The notes beneath the pieces were generated by a model that saw only the letters and a list, made by a program, of their open reading frames with translations, was not told the DNA's origin and did no database searches. Position numbers and translations under genes: made by a program. DNA of 60,617 nt, filler included, from Sphacelaria rigidula (lineage: Eukaryota), in NCBI GenBank assembly GCA_964200075.2. It is 9 parts of 9 records of this genome, joined end to end, with 100 filler letters (N's around TTAATTAATTAA, not from the genome) between each part and the next. Parts side by side here need not be neighbours in the genome. Positions count along the whole stretch, not along the records: positions 26,989 to 33,634 come from CAXNAA020018853.1; 8 more parts are not named here. One strand, 5' to 3'. Shown here piece by piece: positions 26,360-40,190 of this stretch. Position 1 is the first letter of the stretch; each line of letters opens with the position of its first letter.

Positions 26360-26825
26360 TACTTCTCATGTATCAAAAATAAAACTTGTTGAAAAGTGCA
26401 TTTTTGGCCCTTCTCCGTCGTTTTTCGCCCAAAAAGACGGCCAGGCGCCTGATGACACCTTGGACAGACTTGCTCTACTCGCCGAGACGGTTCCTGAGCA
26501 CCTTTGCGTTTGCCGTAGGTCACGGTTTCGTTTTTGGCCAGACTTGCGTTTTCAATAACAACAGTCAAGTTACCAAAAAAATGACAGTTTCCCCCCTGTT
26601 TTCAAATAACTTCACTGTTTGTTATTGGAAATGCAAGTTTGGCCAAAAACGAAACCGTGACCTACAGCAAACGCAAAGGTGCTCAGGAACCGTCTCGGCG
26701 AGTAGAGCAAGTCATTCGAAGGTGTCAACAGCTGCCTAGTAGTCCTCTTTCCGGGGGAAAAACGACGGGGAAGGGCCAAAAATGCACTTTTCAATAAGTT
26801 CTATTTTTCGAAACATAAGAAGTAG
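26360..26825. mobile_element. Foldback element, ~210-bp inverted arms
   Basis: gacttgctctactcgccgagacggttcctgagcacctttgcgtttg pairs with caaacgcaaaggtgctcaggaaccgtctcggcgagtagagcaagtc. A related element lies at 41055-41490. Confidence 0.92.
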
Positions 26826-27045
26826 CCTAACTCGAAAAAACGGCGTGAGGAAATCCCGGGGAATGAATTTTGGGCGTTCAATCTGAACNNNNNNNNNNNN
26901 NNNNNNNNNNNNNNNNNNNNNNNNNNNNNNNNTTAATTAATTAANNNNNNNNNNNNNNNNNNNNNNNNNNNNNNNNNNNNNNNNNNNNGGGGAGTCGCCC
27001 TCATCGGAGTGAAAGTGACGGGGATCAAACCCCCACCACTAACTT

Positions 27046-28167: not shown

Positions 28168-31100
28168 CTACATCTCCGCCAACCGTTTGTAAACCTTGTC
28201 GCTATCTAGTAGCCCCATGCGTGTCGTGAACATGGCTTGGATGCGCCCCGCCGGAAACCGCAGCGGATTTCGTTTGTTCGCAGCAGTATGCCACTCTGCA
28301 CGCACCTGTGCTGATTTGTCGGAGGCGTCATCGACGAGCGGGGGTGACAAGCCGATTAGGCCGCAACGGGCAAGAGCGTCTACAAATTGTGAGAAACTAA
28401 GCCCTGTTCCTCGAGGTGCCAATGATGCCGGAGTTTCCGAGCTCGTAACCCAGTCTTCCAAGTCCTGAGACGCGTTTAAAAGAGAGATTGGAGGGGCGGG
28501 CAGAAGGTAAGCGCTGAGGCGAAACTATGTGAGTGTACTTGCAAGATATTTATTCCGAGCATTTTTGTCGAGCGCGCTACCTCTCGATGGAGATCGTATA
28601 TTTTTTTGCGGCAATAGCGGCCAATGTCTACTTTGGGAATAATGCGGCCGCTCGTACACACCGATAAACCTGCCTTCCAGTACTCTTCCTCCTCATCATG
28701 ACGTCGACGTCCGTCCACATCCTCGCTACAACGCTCCACCGCCGCCATCGTGGCAGCACTGGTATGATCGGGGAATGAGGCCACCACCGAACCATGAGTA
28801 CATGCGCAAAGGAAGGCTACCATAATTTGGACCTCGGTCAGCCAAACGTCCTCCGCTGTCACTATTGCTAGTGCCGCCAGTTCGCCTTCTTGAGGACGAT
28901 GTATACTTGTGTCTGTTGGAGCACGGCGCGCATCCTGGTGGTGATGAGTTAACGGGACTTTGTTGACACCGCGATTTGAAATTTCGTTGCTACCGGAGTC
29001 GCTTTTGGCAATGGCGAAGTGGTGGCACACCGCTTCGAACCCCGCCCAGGAAAGCAGCGGACCGCGTGCACGGTATCGGCGGAAATTAACGGGTGGAAGT
29101 CGGCTGCATGCTGCGTTGTCACATTCATTCCCGCCGCCATCGTCAGCGCTGAAGGGATATGCCGTCGAAACAGTGTACCGCTCCACGAAGGCTGTGAAAA
29201 TCTGTACTGGGTAGCAACGATGATAGACGTGGTACATCTAGCAGAGGTTGTTCAAACGCTACACGTGCACTACAGGGTCTGGACGAGGAAGTAATTCCTG
29301 TAGTGAGTGATGCCCCGATAGCCCCCCTTAAATGAAATTACTGGTTTGAGAACGCAACATCCACATATGAATCGAAATGACAATAGACCAGCACATGGAG
29401 AAGCTGGGGACTCCATCACTCGGGACGTTTTCGTCGATGTCGCCCACATAAGGCGCTTCAGATATCAAGCGCTGTATGGCCATTTTCTTCGTGACAGATT
29501 TGAGGCTGGTTTGGGGGTGGGCTATCGCGGCTTCACTTCAGTGCAAAAGAGTCCGACGTCGTCAAGACTGTCTACAAAACTTACCAGACTCAACGATCCA
29601 CACGCTAAATGTAACAATTATCAGGGCAAACAACTCTAGTGATGATGTGCTTTGCTCTGCTCAGCGCCTACCGCCGCGATGCCGGTCAGGCGTATTGCGA
29701 GATGTGCAACGCAGACACGACGTTCTTCTGATGTTTCCTCGACTTCAGAACACCCCACTAAAAACAATTGATACCACCCTTGAGAAACTGCAGAGGGAAT
29801 TTCCTTACAGTCCTCGATTCGGTCTACTGTGTGTTCGATCCACGCGCGACGTCACCCATGGACACGAAATCATCCCTTGGTGGAGGGAATTTTGAACATA
29901 CATGACGTCATCACAAGGGGAAGGTGATTGCTCCGCCCGAGGTTTCGTAGGCCTGCAGAAAAAAACTCGGGAATGTATTGATGGTCGACATTATGTCTTG
30001 ACCAATCAGAAAACTGCGGATATCTTCTTTGTCACTTAGGTCATGTCGGCCGCCAGTGAATTTCTGAGAAGTTTCTTCGAGAAGTACAGTACAAAGTCTC
30101 GCACCGAGCAATCATATTCTATCTGGGCGACGTCATACATGGCCAAACGTTTCCCTCCACCTGAAAAATGATGTCTTGGCCAGGGATTACATGGCGGATT
30201 AATCGAGGATTTTCCGACCAATTAAACCTTACCCACATTTCGTAACCACCGATGAGAAACTGTGGGCACCTCTCCCCTCCACCTGTGTTCAACTCTGTAT
30301 ATCGTAAGATGAACGCTACCACGGGAGGATCCTCAAAATAAATCTCTCACCGTCTCTAACGCCAAACGTACAGTATTCGCCGCCACCATCGTTTCAAGTA
30401 GGACCTTCGCCACCCCATCCATGCAAGCACGGGCGTGACGCACTTGAGCAGATATACTGAGCGATCCGACACCCCCACCCCTGTGTGAACTGGCATCCCC
30501 GCTGCCTCTGGCTTCCTGATTTAGGCGTAAGAACCCCCATCCCTCCTTGATGTCCTGTATTTCATTGACGGTATCGGGTCCCCCCTGTCCTTGCTGTTGG
30601 TATCCATGGCCCGGCCCAGCGCTCCTTGTATCTATCAAAGCCAAGTGGTCTCGCAAAAGTTCGGTCATATACAGTCCACTTTGCTGCAAGCGGGCCGGAT
30701 GCTCAGATGCGGTCTTGAAGGTCGGGTATGCAGCTTCCCACGCCTCGACAGGACGATCAAGGAGGTGTAATAGTACGGAGGATATTCTCCACGCTAGCTC
30801 GAGACGTAACGGATGGAGTTCGTGCAAACTCGGATGACCCTCCGGACCCTTACCAAGGCTAGTTTCGCCGTGATGTGTATCGCCGGGTTTGAGGTCATCA
30901 TAATCAAAGTCAGTATGTGATCCCCGGGTCACACCGGAAGCGGCCTGTCTGGCAGACAGGTATGCGGTGAGAGCCTGTGATGCAAGGTTTTGAACCTCGC
31001 TATTATTAATAGCACCTGGTAATATCGATTTCCCGCTATTTTGTCGGAGATGTGCTCTCTCGGCCACGTGTAGAAGCTGGTCTCCTTTGAGTTTCAAATA

Positions 31101-31487
31101 ACTTACCCTTCCTTGGACAGAGAGGATCCCATCACTTTCTCCGACGCGACTGTAGTTATTGGATGAGGTGCCGATTCTGTTTCGGGTGCCTTCTTGTTGT
31201 TCCACTCTTCCTCGTAGTTTCTGGTCGAACGCCAGGCGTCGCTCTATAAGTGTCTTGATTTTGGCGAACAAATCGCTTTGCCGGTCATTACTCGCGTCCA
31301 TCATTGCCACTTTCTGGGCACCGTACCTGGGGATCTTATCGTAATGGCCCCGTTGGAATCCCACATCATTCAACGAGAGCTCTTCATATAACAGTAGATG
31401 CGTCAAACCTCTGTTCAGTAGCGTGTGAGGTAGTTTCCCAGTCAAGTGTGCACTGTGGAGGCAGCGCGCTCGCCAGAGATCAACCAC
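28168..31487 (-). CDS. Multi-exon gene: divergent 14-3-3-like domain plus EF-hand-like C-terminal segments
   Basis: Exon ~31487-30351 contains YLKLKGD, ALTAY, LHPLRLELA and ELLRDHL (14-3-3 has YLKMKGD, SL.AY, THPIRLGLA, QLLRDNL). Downstream ORFs 29237-28476 (LSWAGFEAV) and 28461-28168 (LSFSQFVDALARCG). Exon boundaries are only partly resolved. Confidence 0.7.
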
Positions 31488-32532: not shown

Positions 32533-32768
32533 CATATTTAAAGTCGTTGGAGCGTAAAATTTGGTATGGACAACGCATAGGGCATGAAAAAAATTATGTC
32601 GGTACCGAAAGTTTGTTTTTTCATGAGTTGAGGGCAATAACCAGTTTTCAGTTATCAGTAAAATTCCCTCAACCCATGAGATTCTTTTTTTTTCGGTGCC
32701 GACGTAATATATTTTTGTATGCCCTATGCATGGTCGATACCAAATTTTACGCTCCAACTCTTAATATT
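32533..32768. mobile_element. Foldback MITE
   Basis: gttggagcgtaaaatttggtat...tgtcggtaccgaaa pairs with tttcggtgccgacg...ataccaaattttacgctccaac. Confidence 0.85.
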
Positions 32769-32781
32769 GGTCGGCGCATTC

Positions 32782-33036
32782 GAGTCATCCTACGATAGGG
32801 GGGGGGGGGGTATTTGGTTACACGAAAAAAGAGGCTCATAGGTGTGTCAGACGACCTGCCACACTTGTGTTGCGCTTGTATTTGGTTTCAAACGGTGTCA
32901 GCCAGTATGGATGAGCGATATTAATCCACAACAAGCTCGTTCGAACAATCGTTGCTGCTTTCAACGACGTTTTGCCTCGGAATTTCGTGCAAGAAGTGGC
33001 CCAAAATACCTTTCCCCCCCTATCGTATGATGACTC
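32782..33036. mobile_element. MITE GAG…CTC with apparent 4-bp TSD ATTC
   Basis: attc-GAGTCATCCTACGATAGGGG ... CCCCTATCGTATGATGACTC-attc. Confidence 0.85.
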
Positions 33037-35477
33037 ATTCGCCTTTTAAAAACCGGGTCGGTATGAATTCGGAACAGTATTTCGAAGGCCACTCAACGGC
33101 CCACATTTGGTTTTTGTGTATCGATATTTTGTGTGGGTCCTCGCTAGGGCATAATTAACAAAACTCAGTGAGTCAGTCTTTTTTTCGCTGGTTTAGCGCG
33201 TTCTAGTGCGATAAAGATTTGTTTTTTACGAGAATGCCCTAACCTCTCTATAAAAAGAATTGAACACCCTTTTTTTTCATTGGGCACACCTTCGCGGTTC
33301 TCCGTGCGAAGTTTCAAATCACACTTCTAAAAATTGAGCTAAAAATTGAGATGAGGCCTAAGAGTAATTACTATTTCTCCTCAAAACTCCACTAAAAACA
33401 CGAAAATAATGGGGGGAAAAATGAAATTACAAAAAAAAGACGAAAAGCTATTTTGTTCATTTCATTAAGCACTAGCGGTTCTCCATACTTTATCCAGATT
33501 TAGGGCATCTAGTCTCTGCTCGTATATTGGTTTTAGTCTGGAAACTTACGTGCGCCATATCTCGAGATATATAACAGCCGATTTTCGAAAATGGGGTTGA
33601 AAAAAATAATGAGGTTCAACTCAAAAGCCGTGCTNNNNNNNNNNNNNNNNNNNNNNNNNNNNNNNNNNNNNNNNNNNNTTAATTAATTAANNNNNNNNNN
33701 NNNNNNNNNNNNNNNNNNNNNNNNNNNNNNNNNNCCCCCCTTCCGCGCAAACATGCGGCGGCATTTTCTCTTGAGGCGGTGGCGCTTTTGCTTTGTCAAT
33801 CATCGTAGAACTTTGTCGGCTGTTCGCCAAGACGTTTGTGGGTTTTCTGCCATCGAGGGGAATATAACCCAGCGGCGCAGTGACCGTTGCTGTGGTGTAC
33901 ACCTGTCCCACAACCCCGCACCTGATACACAAGCACCCATCAAATTATGATCCCTATGTCATAGGATAGACATTCAGAATTCGAGACCTAGTCATTGATC
34001 AACTAAGTACGACATTTTTGCCTCCGGGAAAATCGGTTCGAAATTTAATGAGACACGATGGTTTCTGTCAGACGCGTGCCATGTAGCACACCCACAAACT
34101 GCGAAGGGCTCCATCATCAGCAATTTTTGTGACACATGCACGGCCGACCCCGTTCCAAACCCGCCGGGGTTACCGTGAAACTGTGTGTAGATAAGTAAGA
34201 GCTAGCGCTAGGCGTGAGGCTCCTCTGCTGTGGGTGTCTACGCATGTTTGTTCCAGCTCGGTGTTTGAGCCACGGCCGTTGAGATTACCGGACCTGTTTC
34301 TGACTGTGTCCGGTGCGGAAAGCAGCACCACTGCTCCAAGAAAGCCTGTGTTGTGTTTCCTCCGTAGGACCCGAAGTAATCGTTGTGGGTAAGCAGCATC
34401 CCTTGCTCGCTCCTTTTTTGGCTTCTTTGATTGTGTCGATAAGACATACAGTAAGACACGGCATGATGAATCGACGCTTTAGACGGCCGTTCATATGTCG
34501 AAAGAAACAGGATCCTTCGAACGAGTAAAAGTGAAGGGTGTTGCGCTGCGTAATTGGATCTCCCCCAACTCCTCCAAAAGTTACTTTGAGCAAATGCTTA
34601 ACTTCTTCGCTTGTCTTCTCGCCGCCCCATGGTCCACAATCACTTCAGTAGTACGAGTATACCCCCACGATTATTATATGTGCTTCTACTACTCCTACAA
34701 CCGGTTTGTACATCGCGTGGCGTCAATCACTCAGCAAAGGTTTCGTTTGTTAGGGTGAAAATCAATGACGGCGAGGCCCAGAGTTTCCAGGCCGTAGATA
34801 GAGGTAAAAAGAAGCGTTGGAGATATTCTTCAGCTGTTCAACTTTGGGTCGTGCGATGTCGGTCAAATGTGGGGTATACTTTGAACACAATTGAGGCCAA
34901 AACACGGTAAGATGAACTGCAAGATGAACATCGTAGTTTATGCTGGATGTACCTATCCCTTTTTCGAACAATGGAGGGTATTCTGCGAGGTCCTTGTACC
35001 CCGCGATGTTGTTTGGCCCTAAATCGCGATACTTCCCCCCAAAATTTGGTGTATATGCTCTGCATGGGCTGTCTACGCCTTGCGTTTCCGGCCGAATTGA
35101 TATTTGAGCGATTTGGGCCTAGCACGGACAGCTCTAAGTTGTGCCTACCTCTACCCACTTTCAGGCTGAAACAGGGAATAATGATGTACCCACTTTGTCT
35201 ATTGCCCACCAATATATATATTAGGCCATAACTTATCATGTGGTGAGATTGATTTCTCTTGTTTCGTTCTGGACTTTCCAGGTTCGGGTGATTTGCCGTC
35301 GTTTTTCACCTGGCCTCAAGATCAGGATATGTCGCCGTCCTCTCGCGTAAACTATACTCTATACTTTCGTATCGGTCATTATCCAGCTACCGGAACTCGT
35401 TGATCCGTGGGCATTACCGTCACTCGCCACCCGGATTCGTCTCTCGTTCCTTTGTGTCTGGAACTGCTTCGCTCCAG

Positions 35478-36784: not shown

Positions 36785-39700
36785 TTATTTTCCAAATCCC
36801 GTTACTGCCCTCCGTAGCCTTTGGTGTGTTGTTCTTTTGCAGTATTTCGTAAGGATATCGGAGAGTTGGTCCTCATCCTTGACTTGATTGATTATTAGCT
36901 GGTCGTTATGTATCAAGTCCTCCAAGCTGTTGAAGCGTATGGCGAGGTGCTTGCTACTGGTGCTGCAGTTCGCACTGAACGAGAGGTGAAGGGCTCCTTG
37001 GGAATCGGAGAAAATGGTTGGAGACTGGATTGACGGCCACCTGAGCTCTCGCAGGAGATGATAAGGGTAGGTACTGAACTTTCCTCCCCTCGGCAGGGCT
37101 ATAAGCTCGGCCTCGGTTGTTGAGGTGGCTGTAATCCGTTGCAGACTTGAAGAAAAAATGATTAGTCCATTTTACCAGGAAGAACATTGTACCTTTAGTA
37201 GATCTCATCTTGCCTTTAGTCCCTGAATTTCCGTAGGATGAATCGCAGAAGCATTTCTCAAGTCCAGGTTGTTTCTGGAGAGGCTGCAGATGATGGGCAT
37301 ATCTGGCGTACCTTTCAAATAGCGAAAAGATAGGCTTTACAGCTGTCAGGTGTTGGGTAGTGAGTTTGCTCATATAGTGCGCAACCTGAGCGACACTAAA
37401 AGATATGTAGAATCTTGTACATTGAGATAGGAAGATCAAGCTGCAGACCATGGCTTGATGCTGTGTAGTTGTTTGTTGATTCAAACGAAATCTGGTTGTC
37501 GGTGATGCCAGTTGTGTGCATTGCGTTGCACGATTCCGTGTTGAATTTTCGGAGTAGTGAGATGACGTATTTGTGCTGGGAGAGTTGTTAGATTCCTCGC
37601 TTGTATCTGTGATAACCTCCATAACAAGGCTGAGGGAGACCGGTTCAAGCTCCGATATAAAACACTTCATCCGCAGAGTGTCTCGAACCTTTTGTAGAAG
37701 CTTGATGGAGGGTCCGGTTAGTATGATGTCGTCGACAAACAGTGTCAGCATGATATACTCGTGCTGTTCTCCTCTAGTTTAGACGAAGGGGTCGGTCGCA
37801 GTGGCTGAAGTCAATTCTCCTCAACTCAGCGTCGATGGTGAAAATTCCACACGATGGAAATCTCTGTCGAAGGCCGCCAAGAGCGCGGCGAAGCCGCATC
37901 ACATGTGGTTGTCCGGTAGCATGGTCTAACGTTTCGAAGCCCGGTGGCTGCTTGCAGACTTCAGGCTCCTGTAGCTTCCCATTTTAAAAAGATTGTTTGG
38001 ACGTCAAGCGCAATTATCGGCCAGGTTTGGCGGCCGCTATTGCCAGAAGAATTCCTTGACTTCCGAGCCTGCAAACCGGTGCAAAAGTACGCCCGCAATC
38101 AATTCCGTATCGTTGCGCCCATCCTTGTACTATGAGCTGAGCTTTGAACCTTCCGTCAGCTTAAATCTTGAAAACCCATCCCGCTCCGATGACATTGTTG
38201 TTAGGTGGAACCTCTCCGGCTGGGATTATATCAGCCACGCGATGGTTTTTTTTTTATGTTTTGCAGCTCGTCCATCATGGCTACTTTCCACTTTAATGCA
38301 AACGGTGAGGAAGATGCTCGTTTATTGTAATTAGGAACTGGGATGGATGCAGGTGGCACGGCGCTTTCATTGCCAACCGTTCCGATATACTGCAGAACGG
38401 TTTCTAAGGCCATAGGTGGATGTTGTGAAGTTCTGCTAACGGGGTCAGCTTGTGCAGTCCACGGGATTGGTGATGGTTAGTTGGAGAGGGTGGACTGTGA
38501 TCCACGTTGCCAGCAGAACGTAGTCGCATTGGATGAGTAAAAGTAGTTGAGCTGGTGTCGGAGCTTTCCAGCTGCGCTATACCGTCGAAGATGTTGTCCT
38601 TGAAGTCCAAACTATTGCGCTGAATTATTTGTTCTTGGCATCGCTGGGCATCAGTTTGCCACTCGTTAGTTGAAGCTCCGACCGCTTGTTCGATGACGGT
38701 GACATTCCGGGAGCTAGATATATTCCCCGAGTAGCAGTCGTAAATACGGTAAAATGAGATATCGGAATCATAGCCTACAAACACTCCTTCCCGCGCTTTT
38801 TCTAGTTTACTCTGATGACGCTCCTTATGCACGAACGCCCTCGAACCGATGGTGCGAAGGAATGATAGCTTCGTATGACTTCCGAACATCCGGTAGTAGG
38901 GTGTTTTTCCGTTGATGTTTCTATGCGGTAGACGATTTATTAAGAATACTACAGTGGCAGCAATCTCCCCCCGAAGGTATTTGGGTAAACTCGCTTCATT
39001 TCAAAGACAGCGAGTGACGTTCAAAATAGTTCTACCCTCGCGTTCAGACATGCCGCTCTGCTGTGGTGTACAAGGCGCAGTAAATTCTTCGAGGATTCCA
39101 GTTGTTTTGCAGTACCGACGGAAGTGGTCCGCGATGTATTCACCCCCACGGTTCGACCGGAGGCGATATACTCGAAGTCCGAAGGGGATTGCCGCGCCTT
39201 GGATGTACTTGCAAAGTGTAGAAAACACCTCGTTTTTGTGTTGATGAAGTGTACAACTCTTAGTCGGCTGCGGTGGTTGGTAAATTTGGCCATGTACGTG
39301 TATTCTCCTAGTGCAGTTGGTGCGACGGGACCCGTCAGGTCAGTAGTTACCAGTTGCAGACGCTCTTTGACGAATGTAGAGTCGCAAGCCTTGGAGTGAT
39401 ACCGCTGGGGGCTTTTATTCGTGGAGCAGGTGTCACAAGAAAGAATTGAACGCACAAACTTTATACCTGATTCAGGAATATTCATGACACCACACATGTC
39501 TGGTTTAGCAGGGTGACCCAGTCGTCTATGCCAAACTTCGGCACCCATCGTAGTTGAAAGAGCTGAAGGGTCTTCGGCGGTAGCTGTGAATGCTGTCTCC
39601 ATGCCCGTACGTTCCCCGAAAACCACCTCAGCCGCGAGTGCTGACCCGGAGCTTGTGTTTAATATTTTTGAATCCCGAGCGATCTTCATGTCAATGATGT

Positions 39701-40190
39701 GAAGCATTCCGAATACCCGAGATCTATATGAGGATTAACGGAACACACGGTTGAAACACCCTTCGTCAGTGCTCAGGTATGAAAAGGTGTTTTCTCACGC
39801 GAACAATGATAGCTGGGAGACGAACGGAGCGCTGACTGCCCTGCCGATCGATGGCGATGAAGTGGAGCACCCCCTTTCCTGTTCCGCAAAATAGATGACG
39901 TCCCGCTGTAAGAATGCTCATGGGAGGATCGAGCTTCACATAATCGAACATCTCATCTTCGATGTCGCGCAGCAGCTCATTGTCTAAGTGGTGATGGGAT
40001 GCCCCCGAATCACATACCATCTTGAATGGCATGGAGACGGGTGTTCGAGTGTTGTCCTTGATGGGAGAACCAGCGAGAAAAGTAGAGCCTAAGCCCCTTG
40101 ATGATGGGCATGTGTTAGTCACTGTTGAAGCTGACGATCCGCTGAATTCTTGAGCTTGGTTGTTGGAGGGTACGGTAGTTGATGCAGTAC
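36785..40190 (-). mobile_element. Decayed Ty1/copia LTR retrotransposon pol (PR-IN-RT-RH)
   Basis: Protease DSGASHH, GAG-pre-integrase WHRRLGHP, integrase SNRGGEY and TPQQSGMSER, SH3-like GVFVGYD, RT LFVDDI, RNase H KHLAIR..DQLSDILTK. Copia domain order, with many frameshifts. Confidence 0.95.

Follow-up and report, generated by a model that had tools for sequence, protein, structure and literature searches.

Canonical 14-3-3s are highly conserved, stand-alone dimers of about 250 amino acids that read phosphoserine. Their helices A-C provide much of the dimer interface, together with Lys49 and Arg56; the phosphate is bound by Lys49, Arg56, Arg127 and Tyr128, and the peptide by Asn173 and Asn224. 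A 14-3-3-like helical domain is also used by the multidomain proteins SMG5/6/7 and EST1, where it still binds phosphoserine and is not known to be detected by the Pfam family PF00244. Here we describe a gene on the minus strand of a 60,617-nucleotide stretch of Sphacelaria rigidula DNA (assembly GCA_964200075.2; this whole stretch is referred to as the window), in which a domain derived from 14-3-3 is joined to a second conserved domain. An earlier examination of the DNA without database searches (the sequence-only reading) had proposed at 28168..31487 a 14-3-3 scaffold that does not bind phosphopeptides, fused to a long EF-hand/p25-like C-terminus. The explanation that we favour, with a probability of roughly 0.55 as a whole, is a two-domain protein that combines a re-fitted 14-3-3 groove with a C-terminal domain possibly anchoring it on microtubules. 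Its anatomy, that is, an intact gene, a conserved fusion, a truncated 14-3-3-like domain and a second domain, is very probable; the function as a microtubule adaptor is put forward tentatively and with the odds against it.

The N-terminal domain descends from 14-3-3. When the 384-residue open reading frame (ORF) that encodes it was compared with PDB sequences using phmmer, 14-3-3s accounted for 54 of the 55 distinct sequences matched at E<=10 (best E 0.047), with two stretches aligning to 14-3-3 in the right order. PF00244 was the sole Pfam family matched by this ORF (E 0.023, 14.7 bits). Brown-alga relatives scored 12.9-29 bits against the same family, which was matched at E<=1 by 49 of 127 family members (best E 3.3e-9), and the Triparma homologue P0061 passed its cut-off (37.1 bits, E 3.3e-9, profile positions 30-217). 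The 14-3-3 motifs picked out in the sequence-only reading were all recovered on the minus strand where it had placed them, collinear with 14-3-3: YLKLKGD (31100-31080), with ALTAY in the same ORF, HPLRLELA (30815-30792) and LLRDHL (30659-30642). YLKLKGD, HPLRLELA and LLRD align to the signature motifs of helices E, G and I, which are kept in order and are invariant or nearly so in a 34-sequence alignment. Foldseek returned at least 285 matches at E<=1e-3 for the structure model of the window protein and 388 for that of the Triparma homologue, 14-3-3 throughout among the matches listed. Chains of 14-3-3 ranked top in every fold search, and the predicted window domain superposes on solved 14-3-3 structures.

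Could this likeness be convergent, and the N-terminal domain a generic TPR-like helical repeat? We consider this very unlikely. A generic repeat would have to preserve both the hallmark 14-3-3 motifs (helices E, G and I) and their order, and to bring 14-3-3 chains first in all fold searches. It would also have to match PF00244 in 49 members when the next commonest family is matched by three (no other Pfam family recurs in more than three of the 127), and to carry one member over the curated cut-off along profile positions 30-217.

The domain is nevertheless both shorter than a 14-3-3 and altered in its groove. In the structure model, residues 1-232 (30609..31304, minus strand) form six helices ahead of the linker (residues 4-41, 63-89, 101-123, 165-181, 185-201 and 208-228), which correspond to 14-3-3 helices D to I, against the nine helices (A-I) of 14-3-3; a disordered insert of 41 residues (124-164) lies between helices F and G. 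The structural alignments begin at about chain residue 70-73 of 14-3-3 zeta and cover about 70-230 only. A hidden exon for helices A-C was looked for in nine minus-strand ORFs located upstream, downstream and within the introns, and none of them carried a 14-3-3 signal. The absence of helices A-C goes beyond what the sequence-only reading had claimed, and a classical 14-3-3 dimer is improbable for this protein.

Groove positions were assigned by human zeta numbering, which we take to apply here and which is consistent with the chain indices in the phmmer alignments, and residues were counted in 34 aligned sequences of the brown-alga-type group. The Arg127 position is occupied by Leu in 31 sequences and Val in three, and the Tyr128 position by His in all 34. 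Arg replaces Asn173 in 32 (His and Lys in one each), and Asn224 gives way to His in 32 and Gln in two. The equivalents of Lys120, Asp124, Arg222 and Asp223 are kept in every sequence. Among the divergent long members, none has Arg-Tyr or the two Asn at the groove positions as read from the alignment; in the Triparma proteins Cys-Gln takes the place of Arg127-Tyr128, and Lys that of Asn173. The replacements proposed earlier from the DNA (GDYYRY to GDQLLH, ALNFS to AWRIS and RDNL to RDHL) are visible in the phmmer alignments to PDB 14-3-3 sequences. Those alignments, the residue counts and the fold search together bear out the claim that the N-terminal part is derived from 14-3-3 with its groove residues replaced.

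Because the ligand residues are absent or replaced, canonical phosphopeptide binding is excluded as far as sequence can show, and the domain would be unable to clamp phosphoserine peptides in the canonical manner. Given that the new groove residues are strictly conserved within the group, the groove appears still to have a ligand and to be under selection; this ligand is probably a different, non-phosphorylated one. Three of the six features considered for membership depart from 14-3-3, namely score, helix number and phosphate ligands, and 'divergent, truncated 14-3-3-like domain' is the most fitting description.

This domain is encoded at the start of a gene of three predicted exons. Three minus-strand ORFs, of 384 (30333-31487), 253 (28476-29237) and 97 (28168-28461) amino acids, hold exons 1, 2 and 3, respectively, and read from the DNA as a single intact gene with a product of about 592-596 amino acids. 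The coding part of exon 1 (30351..31304; 318 amino acids) runs from the first ATG of its ORF, the position where aligned relatives begin, to a GTGAGA donor at 30350. In the read-through ORFs of relatives, Val (GTx) stands immediately after the ALET-equivalent residues, which indicates an exon 1 donor at the same position. Upstream, a part of the ORF beginning with GTG (31305..31487) has a counterpart in none of 15 aligned relatives, and there is no ATG ahead of 31304 in the exon 1 frame. Since 31305-31487 is not conserved in relatives, coding most likely starts at the ATG at 31304, and the upstream part is probably 5' untranslated and outside the protein. The interval 28168..31487 originally assigned to the gene does contain it, with the exception of this upper end.

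Intron 1 (29202..30350; 1149 nucleotides, GT..AG, phase 0) has junctions that can be read from the DNA; tblastn blocks of relatives break off and resume at its boundaries, and across the exon 2 acceptor position the relative P0038 reads ..FPRQ and then IFEVY. Exon 2 (28662..29201) encodes 180 amino acids as read from the DNA with a GTGTGT donor at 28661. An alternative end at 28674, with a GC donor (GCAGGT), gives 176 amino acids and matches the relatives' spacing, YWR/DMER, exactly. Both models are in frame, at 596 amino acids with the GT donor and 592 with the GC donor, and the relative P0040 has HWR followed by VSCFF, i.e. a donor straight after the WR codon. Intron 2 (28465..28661) is 197 nucleotides long, or 209 with the GC donor at 28673, and ends in the acceptor ...TCTCAG at 28466-28465; the homologous exon in the ORFs of relatives P0050 and P0054 begins just ahead of G/D-I/M-ER. 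Exon 3 (28168..28464) encodes 98 amino acids followed by a TAG stop at 28170-28168, and holds GLSFSQFVDALARCGLIG and RIQAMFTTRMGLLD. The intron positions are common to the window gene and its relatives.

Full-length proteins of Ectocarpus, Scytosiphon and Hapterophycus give three collinear tblastn blocks on the three ORFs, and the spliced protein aligns to Ectocarpus P0010 in one block (residues 11-593 against 15-599, 36% identity, E 1.6e-85). The proposed fusion to the two downstream ORFs therefore stands, as all three ORFs are matched collinearly by full-length proteins of brown algae, Triparma and Chrysoparadoxa. The contrary view, in which the ORFs are separate genes or a decaying pseudogene and not one expressed gene in this organism, can appeal to the fact that the one-gene reading is built from DNA and relatives, with splicing and expression predicted for S. 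rigidula, and to the ambiguity of the second donor (GC at 28673 or GT at 28661). We nevertheless give it very little credence: the exons are all open and collinear with full-length relatives, a predicted helix spans the exon 1-exon 2 junction, the window copy retains the invariant residues of the family, and Triparma has fused transcripts. Three small runs guessed to be RNA contributed no splice joints, and one of their low-depth contigs (30266-30416; 151 nucleotides) spans the exon 1 donor unspliced. These runs may thus be DNA; for the contig itself, genomic DNA and unspliced transcript are indistinguishable. Within intron 1, a word of about 30 nucleotides at 29469-29497 occurs in very high copy, with a summed contig depth of 40467 against about 66 in its flanks in the DNA run; the contigs of that run break here, and the word probably marks where a dispersed short repeat ends.

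The two-domain arrangement is conserved well outside S. rigidula. At E<=0.001, 33 relatives were identified by protein search, with gene products of Ectocarpus, Laminaria, Scytosiphon, Hapterophycus and Pylaiella representing the brown algae, and the long relatives (600-715 amino acids) extend beyond their 14-3-3-like part, continuing in a C-terminal region collinear with both downstream ORFs. Searched against 1.84 billion representatives, the full-length profile matched 95 proteins at E<=0.001 and 70 at E<=1e-10; many of the 95 are fragments, single-exon ORFs drawn from unassembled DNA of eukaryotes. Divergent full-length members were found in Triparma verrucosa, T. strigata, T. laevis, a scaly Parmales species and Chrysoparadoxa australica. 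Both domains are present in a complete ORF of 596 amino acids from an MMETSP transcriptome and in its cluster mate of 598 amino acids from Triparma eleuthera, which is transcript-level evidence of the fusion in a relative. Using the profiles built here, at least 14 of 156 stored proteins carried both domains in one chain at E<=1e-5; this figure is a minimum, since only the brown-alga-type group went into the N-domain profile.

A quick tree of 48 rows, with the first 360 residues of each, served only to place the window protein among its relatives. There it groups with two other sequences (support of 100 in the Shimodaira-Hasegawa-like approximate likelihood-ratio test, SH-aLRT), inside a 37-row group that includes every named brown alga; outside it come Chrysoparadoxa, Parmales and further groups, in that order. 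The family is found in several ochrophyte classes. Our literature search found no description of it, or of a 14-3-3 and p25-alpha or heterokont fusion.

Following the 14-3-3-like domain is a disordered linker (residues 233-278), with a predicted local distance difference test (pLDDT) score below 50 over residues 234-285 of the window model. Inside it lies the motif GWGFLR (residues 255-260; 30525..30542, minus strand), in which W256 and F258 are invariant, and L259 and R260 nearly so, in the 34-sequence alignment. The C-terminal conserved domain (C-domain; 28171..30470, minus strand) extends from exon-1 residue 279 to the end of the protein and is split by both introns. Its start falls within the final 40 residues of exon 1 and its end near the stop codon, and the helix TVRLALET/IFTAFVERY is predicted to be unbroken across the exon 1-exon 2 junction. 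Its best-conserved motif is GLSFSQFVDALARCGLIG (28404-28351, exon 3). Because the window's own C-domain is split by introns, we modelled the Triparma homologue P0061, using 127 sequences. In this model residues 285-520 have a pLDDT mostly above 90; seven main helices make up this stretch, and its first loop carries a small three-stranded sheet. As modelled, the C-domain is compact, mostly helical and conserved, and it is without a Pfam family: the exon 2 and exon 3 peptides of the window had no Pfam match at E<=10.

The C-terminus had been described as EF-hand/p25-like from two motifs, LSWAGF (29054-29037) and LSFSQFVDALAR (28401-28366), both of which are present on the minus strand. That description found no support in the sequence: there was no Pfam match to these families among the 127 members, no internal repeat, and pattern searches of the spliced protein found neither a canonical 12-residue EF loop nor the Rossmann-like motif GxGxGxxGR. 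The latter is the motif of long or partial p25-alpha domains, according to those parts of Orosz 2012 (PMC3498115) that we draw on. Its absence does not exclude p25-alpha, because short or truncated p25-alpha domains also do without it. A model of two repeated EF-hand-like modules was dropped, as the half with LSWxGF and the half with LxFxQF (LSFSQF) aligned in hhalign with a probability of 0.3%.

A word-based search with the Ectocarpus C-terminus found five proteins including the query, all of them brown-alga family members, and the C-domain profile found 19 proteins, p25-alpha being present in none. A PDB profile search with the domain-alignment profile gave only 14-3-3 among the best 60 of 67 matches. 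Likewise, Foldseek with the two-domain Triparma model against the PDB gave only 14-3-3 among the matches listed; 14-3-3 rows filled this output, so the C-domain stayed hidden. A fold search of BFVD with the C-domain had no match at E<=0.001, and single-sequence PDB searches (P0065; exon 3) gave nothing or chance rows.

Three leads emerged from other comparisons. Using language-model features in the Atlas, five of the 30 matches of a C-domain-only fragment were clusters with p25-alpha in 14-17% of their members (score 0.93, 188-194 shared features), and one p25-alpha-bearing cluster recurred for the Ectocarpus C-terminus (score 0.88). The single structural match of the C-domain model was chain residues 13-148 of 9nw3_2A, from a Tetrahymena ciliary-tip central-pair entry. 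Against the PDB, the C-domain profile matched, besides a chance row, 26 residues of FAP216 (E 0.016), a central-pair protein of Chlamydomonas. The three leads, from structure, language model and sequence profile, weakly suggest a ciliary microtubule-associated helical domain, the one description on which they agree; membership of the TPPP/p25-alpha, calponin-homology (CH) or EF-hand families is not established. In the FAP216 match it is GLSFSQFVDALARCGLIG that resembles FAP216, at residues 305-330 (PDB 7n6g chain 3C), and this motif may mark a wider, undescribed ciliary module.

Several results count against the favoured explanation. The 14.7 bits of the window ORF lie far below the PF00244 gathering cut-off of 33.2 bits, so its 14-3-3 membership rests on the relatives and the fold. 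The models of the window and Triparma proteins are middling, with a mean pLDDT of 70.7 and 74.5 and a predicted template modelling score (pTM) of 0.57 and 0.52, and the C-domain model is that of the Triparma homologue, 23% identical, rather than of the window's own protein. None of the 127 members had a Pfam match to p25-alpha (PF05517), CH or EF-hand at E<=1, and profile and single-sequence searches of PDB sequences gave no TPPP match. The C-domain is not consistently basic, as TPPPs are, with isoelectric points of 5.9 (window) and 5.75-8.5 (relatives); simple electrostatic tubulin binding is therefore not favoured. Finally, on residue numbers (13-148), the match to 9nw3_2A would suit SPEF1A and its CH domain better than TLP1, whose TPPP-like domain spans 335-461; this sits uneasily with the p25-alpha lead.

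This last point bears on a rival with the same anatomy, in which the C-domain is a CH domain of the SPEF1/EB type and still a microtubule binder, although of another family. In the portions of the 9nw3 paper (PMC11642885) used here, small helical TPPP-like and CH domains are wedged between microtubule protofilaments. The CH domain of SPEF1A occupies the first ~150 residues, tubulin contacts lie at R25-K80, helix 7 spans 158-209, and the TPPP-like domains are placed at 335-461 (TLP1), 889-1064 and 1489-1657 (PMC11642885, same portions). A match at chain residues 13-148 would thus suit SPEF1A, as the TPPP-like domains lie further along. However, a CH-type Pfam match was seen in none of the 127 members, the Atlas feature matches lead to clusters bearing p25-alpha and in no case to CH, and the stated length of 9nw3_2A (190) is not a clear fit to the modelled part of SPEF1A. 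We regard a CH identity as unlikely, while well short of negligible.

A further rival holds that the C-domain is a lineage-specific helical domain unrelated to microtubule binders, for example that of a cytosolic scaffold, and that its ciliary look-alikes arose by chance. Against this, the structural, language-model and sequence-profile results, each weak and obtained with a different tool, converge on ciliary or microtubule proteins, and we judge chance resemblance about as improbable as a CH identity.

The two-domain explanation that we favour allows a mechanism to be proposed. The C-domain would anchor the protein on microtubules, possibly in flagella, and the degenerate 14-3-3 groove would hold a non-phosphorylated partner there, or an internal segment. 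In this case the protein would be a fixed adaptor and not a reader of a phospho-switch. A bolder version, which we consider doubtful, is that the family is an old ochrophyte invention, shared by brown algae, Chrysoparadoxa and Parmales: a 14-3-3 that shed the N-terminal helices used for dimerising and phosphate reading, its groove refitted with conserved His, Arg and Gln to take a non-phosphorylated ligand, permanently fused to a microtubule inter-protofilament 'wedge' domain and serving as a structural adaptor of heterokont flagellar or cytoskeletal microtubules, in which the WGF motif of the linker might be an internal pseudo-ligand.

The protein genuinely departs from the 14-3-3 stereotype, and this departure is conserved; the function is conjecture. 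A conserved family that retains the C-terminal two-thirds of the fold, with every phospho-ligand residue replaced by another, likewise conserved set, fixed in a larger protein, indicates that the 14-3-3 scaffold can be re-used and provides a natural test case for what a 14-3-3 groove binds without phosphate. If the C-domain is a microtubule wedge, the protein would be a lineage-specific part of the heterokont cytoskeleton or flagellum, a system with few characterised specific proteins. Members occur in brown algae, including genetic model species, which makes ordinary tests feasible.

Elsewhere in the window, a long hairpin-like inverted repeat (26375-26808) lies ~1.4 kb downstream of the stop of the gene. 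Its inner arms (26431-26561 and 26619-26749) are 131 nucleotides long and 89% complementary, its outer arms are 63 nucleotides long and 90% complementary, and ORFs on both strands give near-identical peptides; a run of N follows at ~26889-26988. Upstream of the gene are two more inverted repeats, at 32546-32758 (52-nucleotide arms, 87% complementarity) and 32782-33036 (36-nucleotide arms with a poly-G/poly-C core). The ORF at 39021-39707 (minus strand) matches the GAG-pre-integrase family PF13976 below its cut-off (E 3.1e-5) and is probably a retrotransposon remnant. A Pfam scan of 14 other long ORFs of the window had no match, and a run of N at ~33690-33730 appears as X in the ORF 33687-33932.

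How does the protein compare with the systems nearest to it? On the C-terminal side it resembles TPPP/p25-alpha in having a small helical domain, in its language-model matches to clusters that are partly PF05517, and in a structural match within the entry that contains TLP1/TLP2; it differs in lacking both a PF05517 match across the 127 members and GxGxGxxGR. Multidomain TPPP-like proteins exist in stramenopiles, with partners such as B-box, IQ and others, and 14-3-3 is not among the partners listed in those sections of Orosz 2012 (PMC3498115) on which we rely. The CH domain of SPEF1/CLAMP may be the chain that was matched by the C-domain model, judged by residue numbers, and has no sequence-level support.

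On the N-terminal side, the protein shares with canonical 14-3-3 the signature motifs of helices E-I in the same order, a fold that superposes, and invariant equivalents of Arg222 and Asp223. It is unlike canonical 14-3-3 in having six of the nine helices, four replaced groove residues and the 41-residue insert between helices F and G, and in that the domain makes up the N-terminal portion of a larger protein, roughly 600 amino acids long. The divergent 14-3-3 of Cryptosporidium parvum (PDB 3efz) is stand-alone, unlike the window protein. The same family and the same two-domain architecture are found in gene products of Ectocarpus, Scytosiphon and Hapterophycus, known as database entries only, and in Triparma P0061, P0119 and P0134. 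The Triparma proteins are about 23% identical to that of the window and have different groove residues again; their automatic UniRef name is '14-3-3 domain-containing protein', and a database pipeline already recognises the 14-3-3 domain in these relatives.

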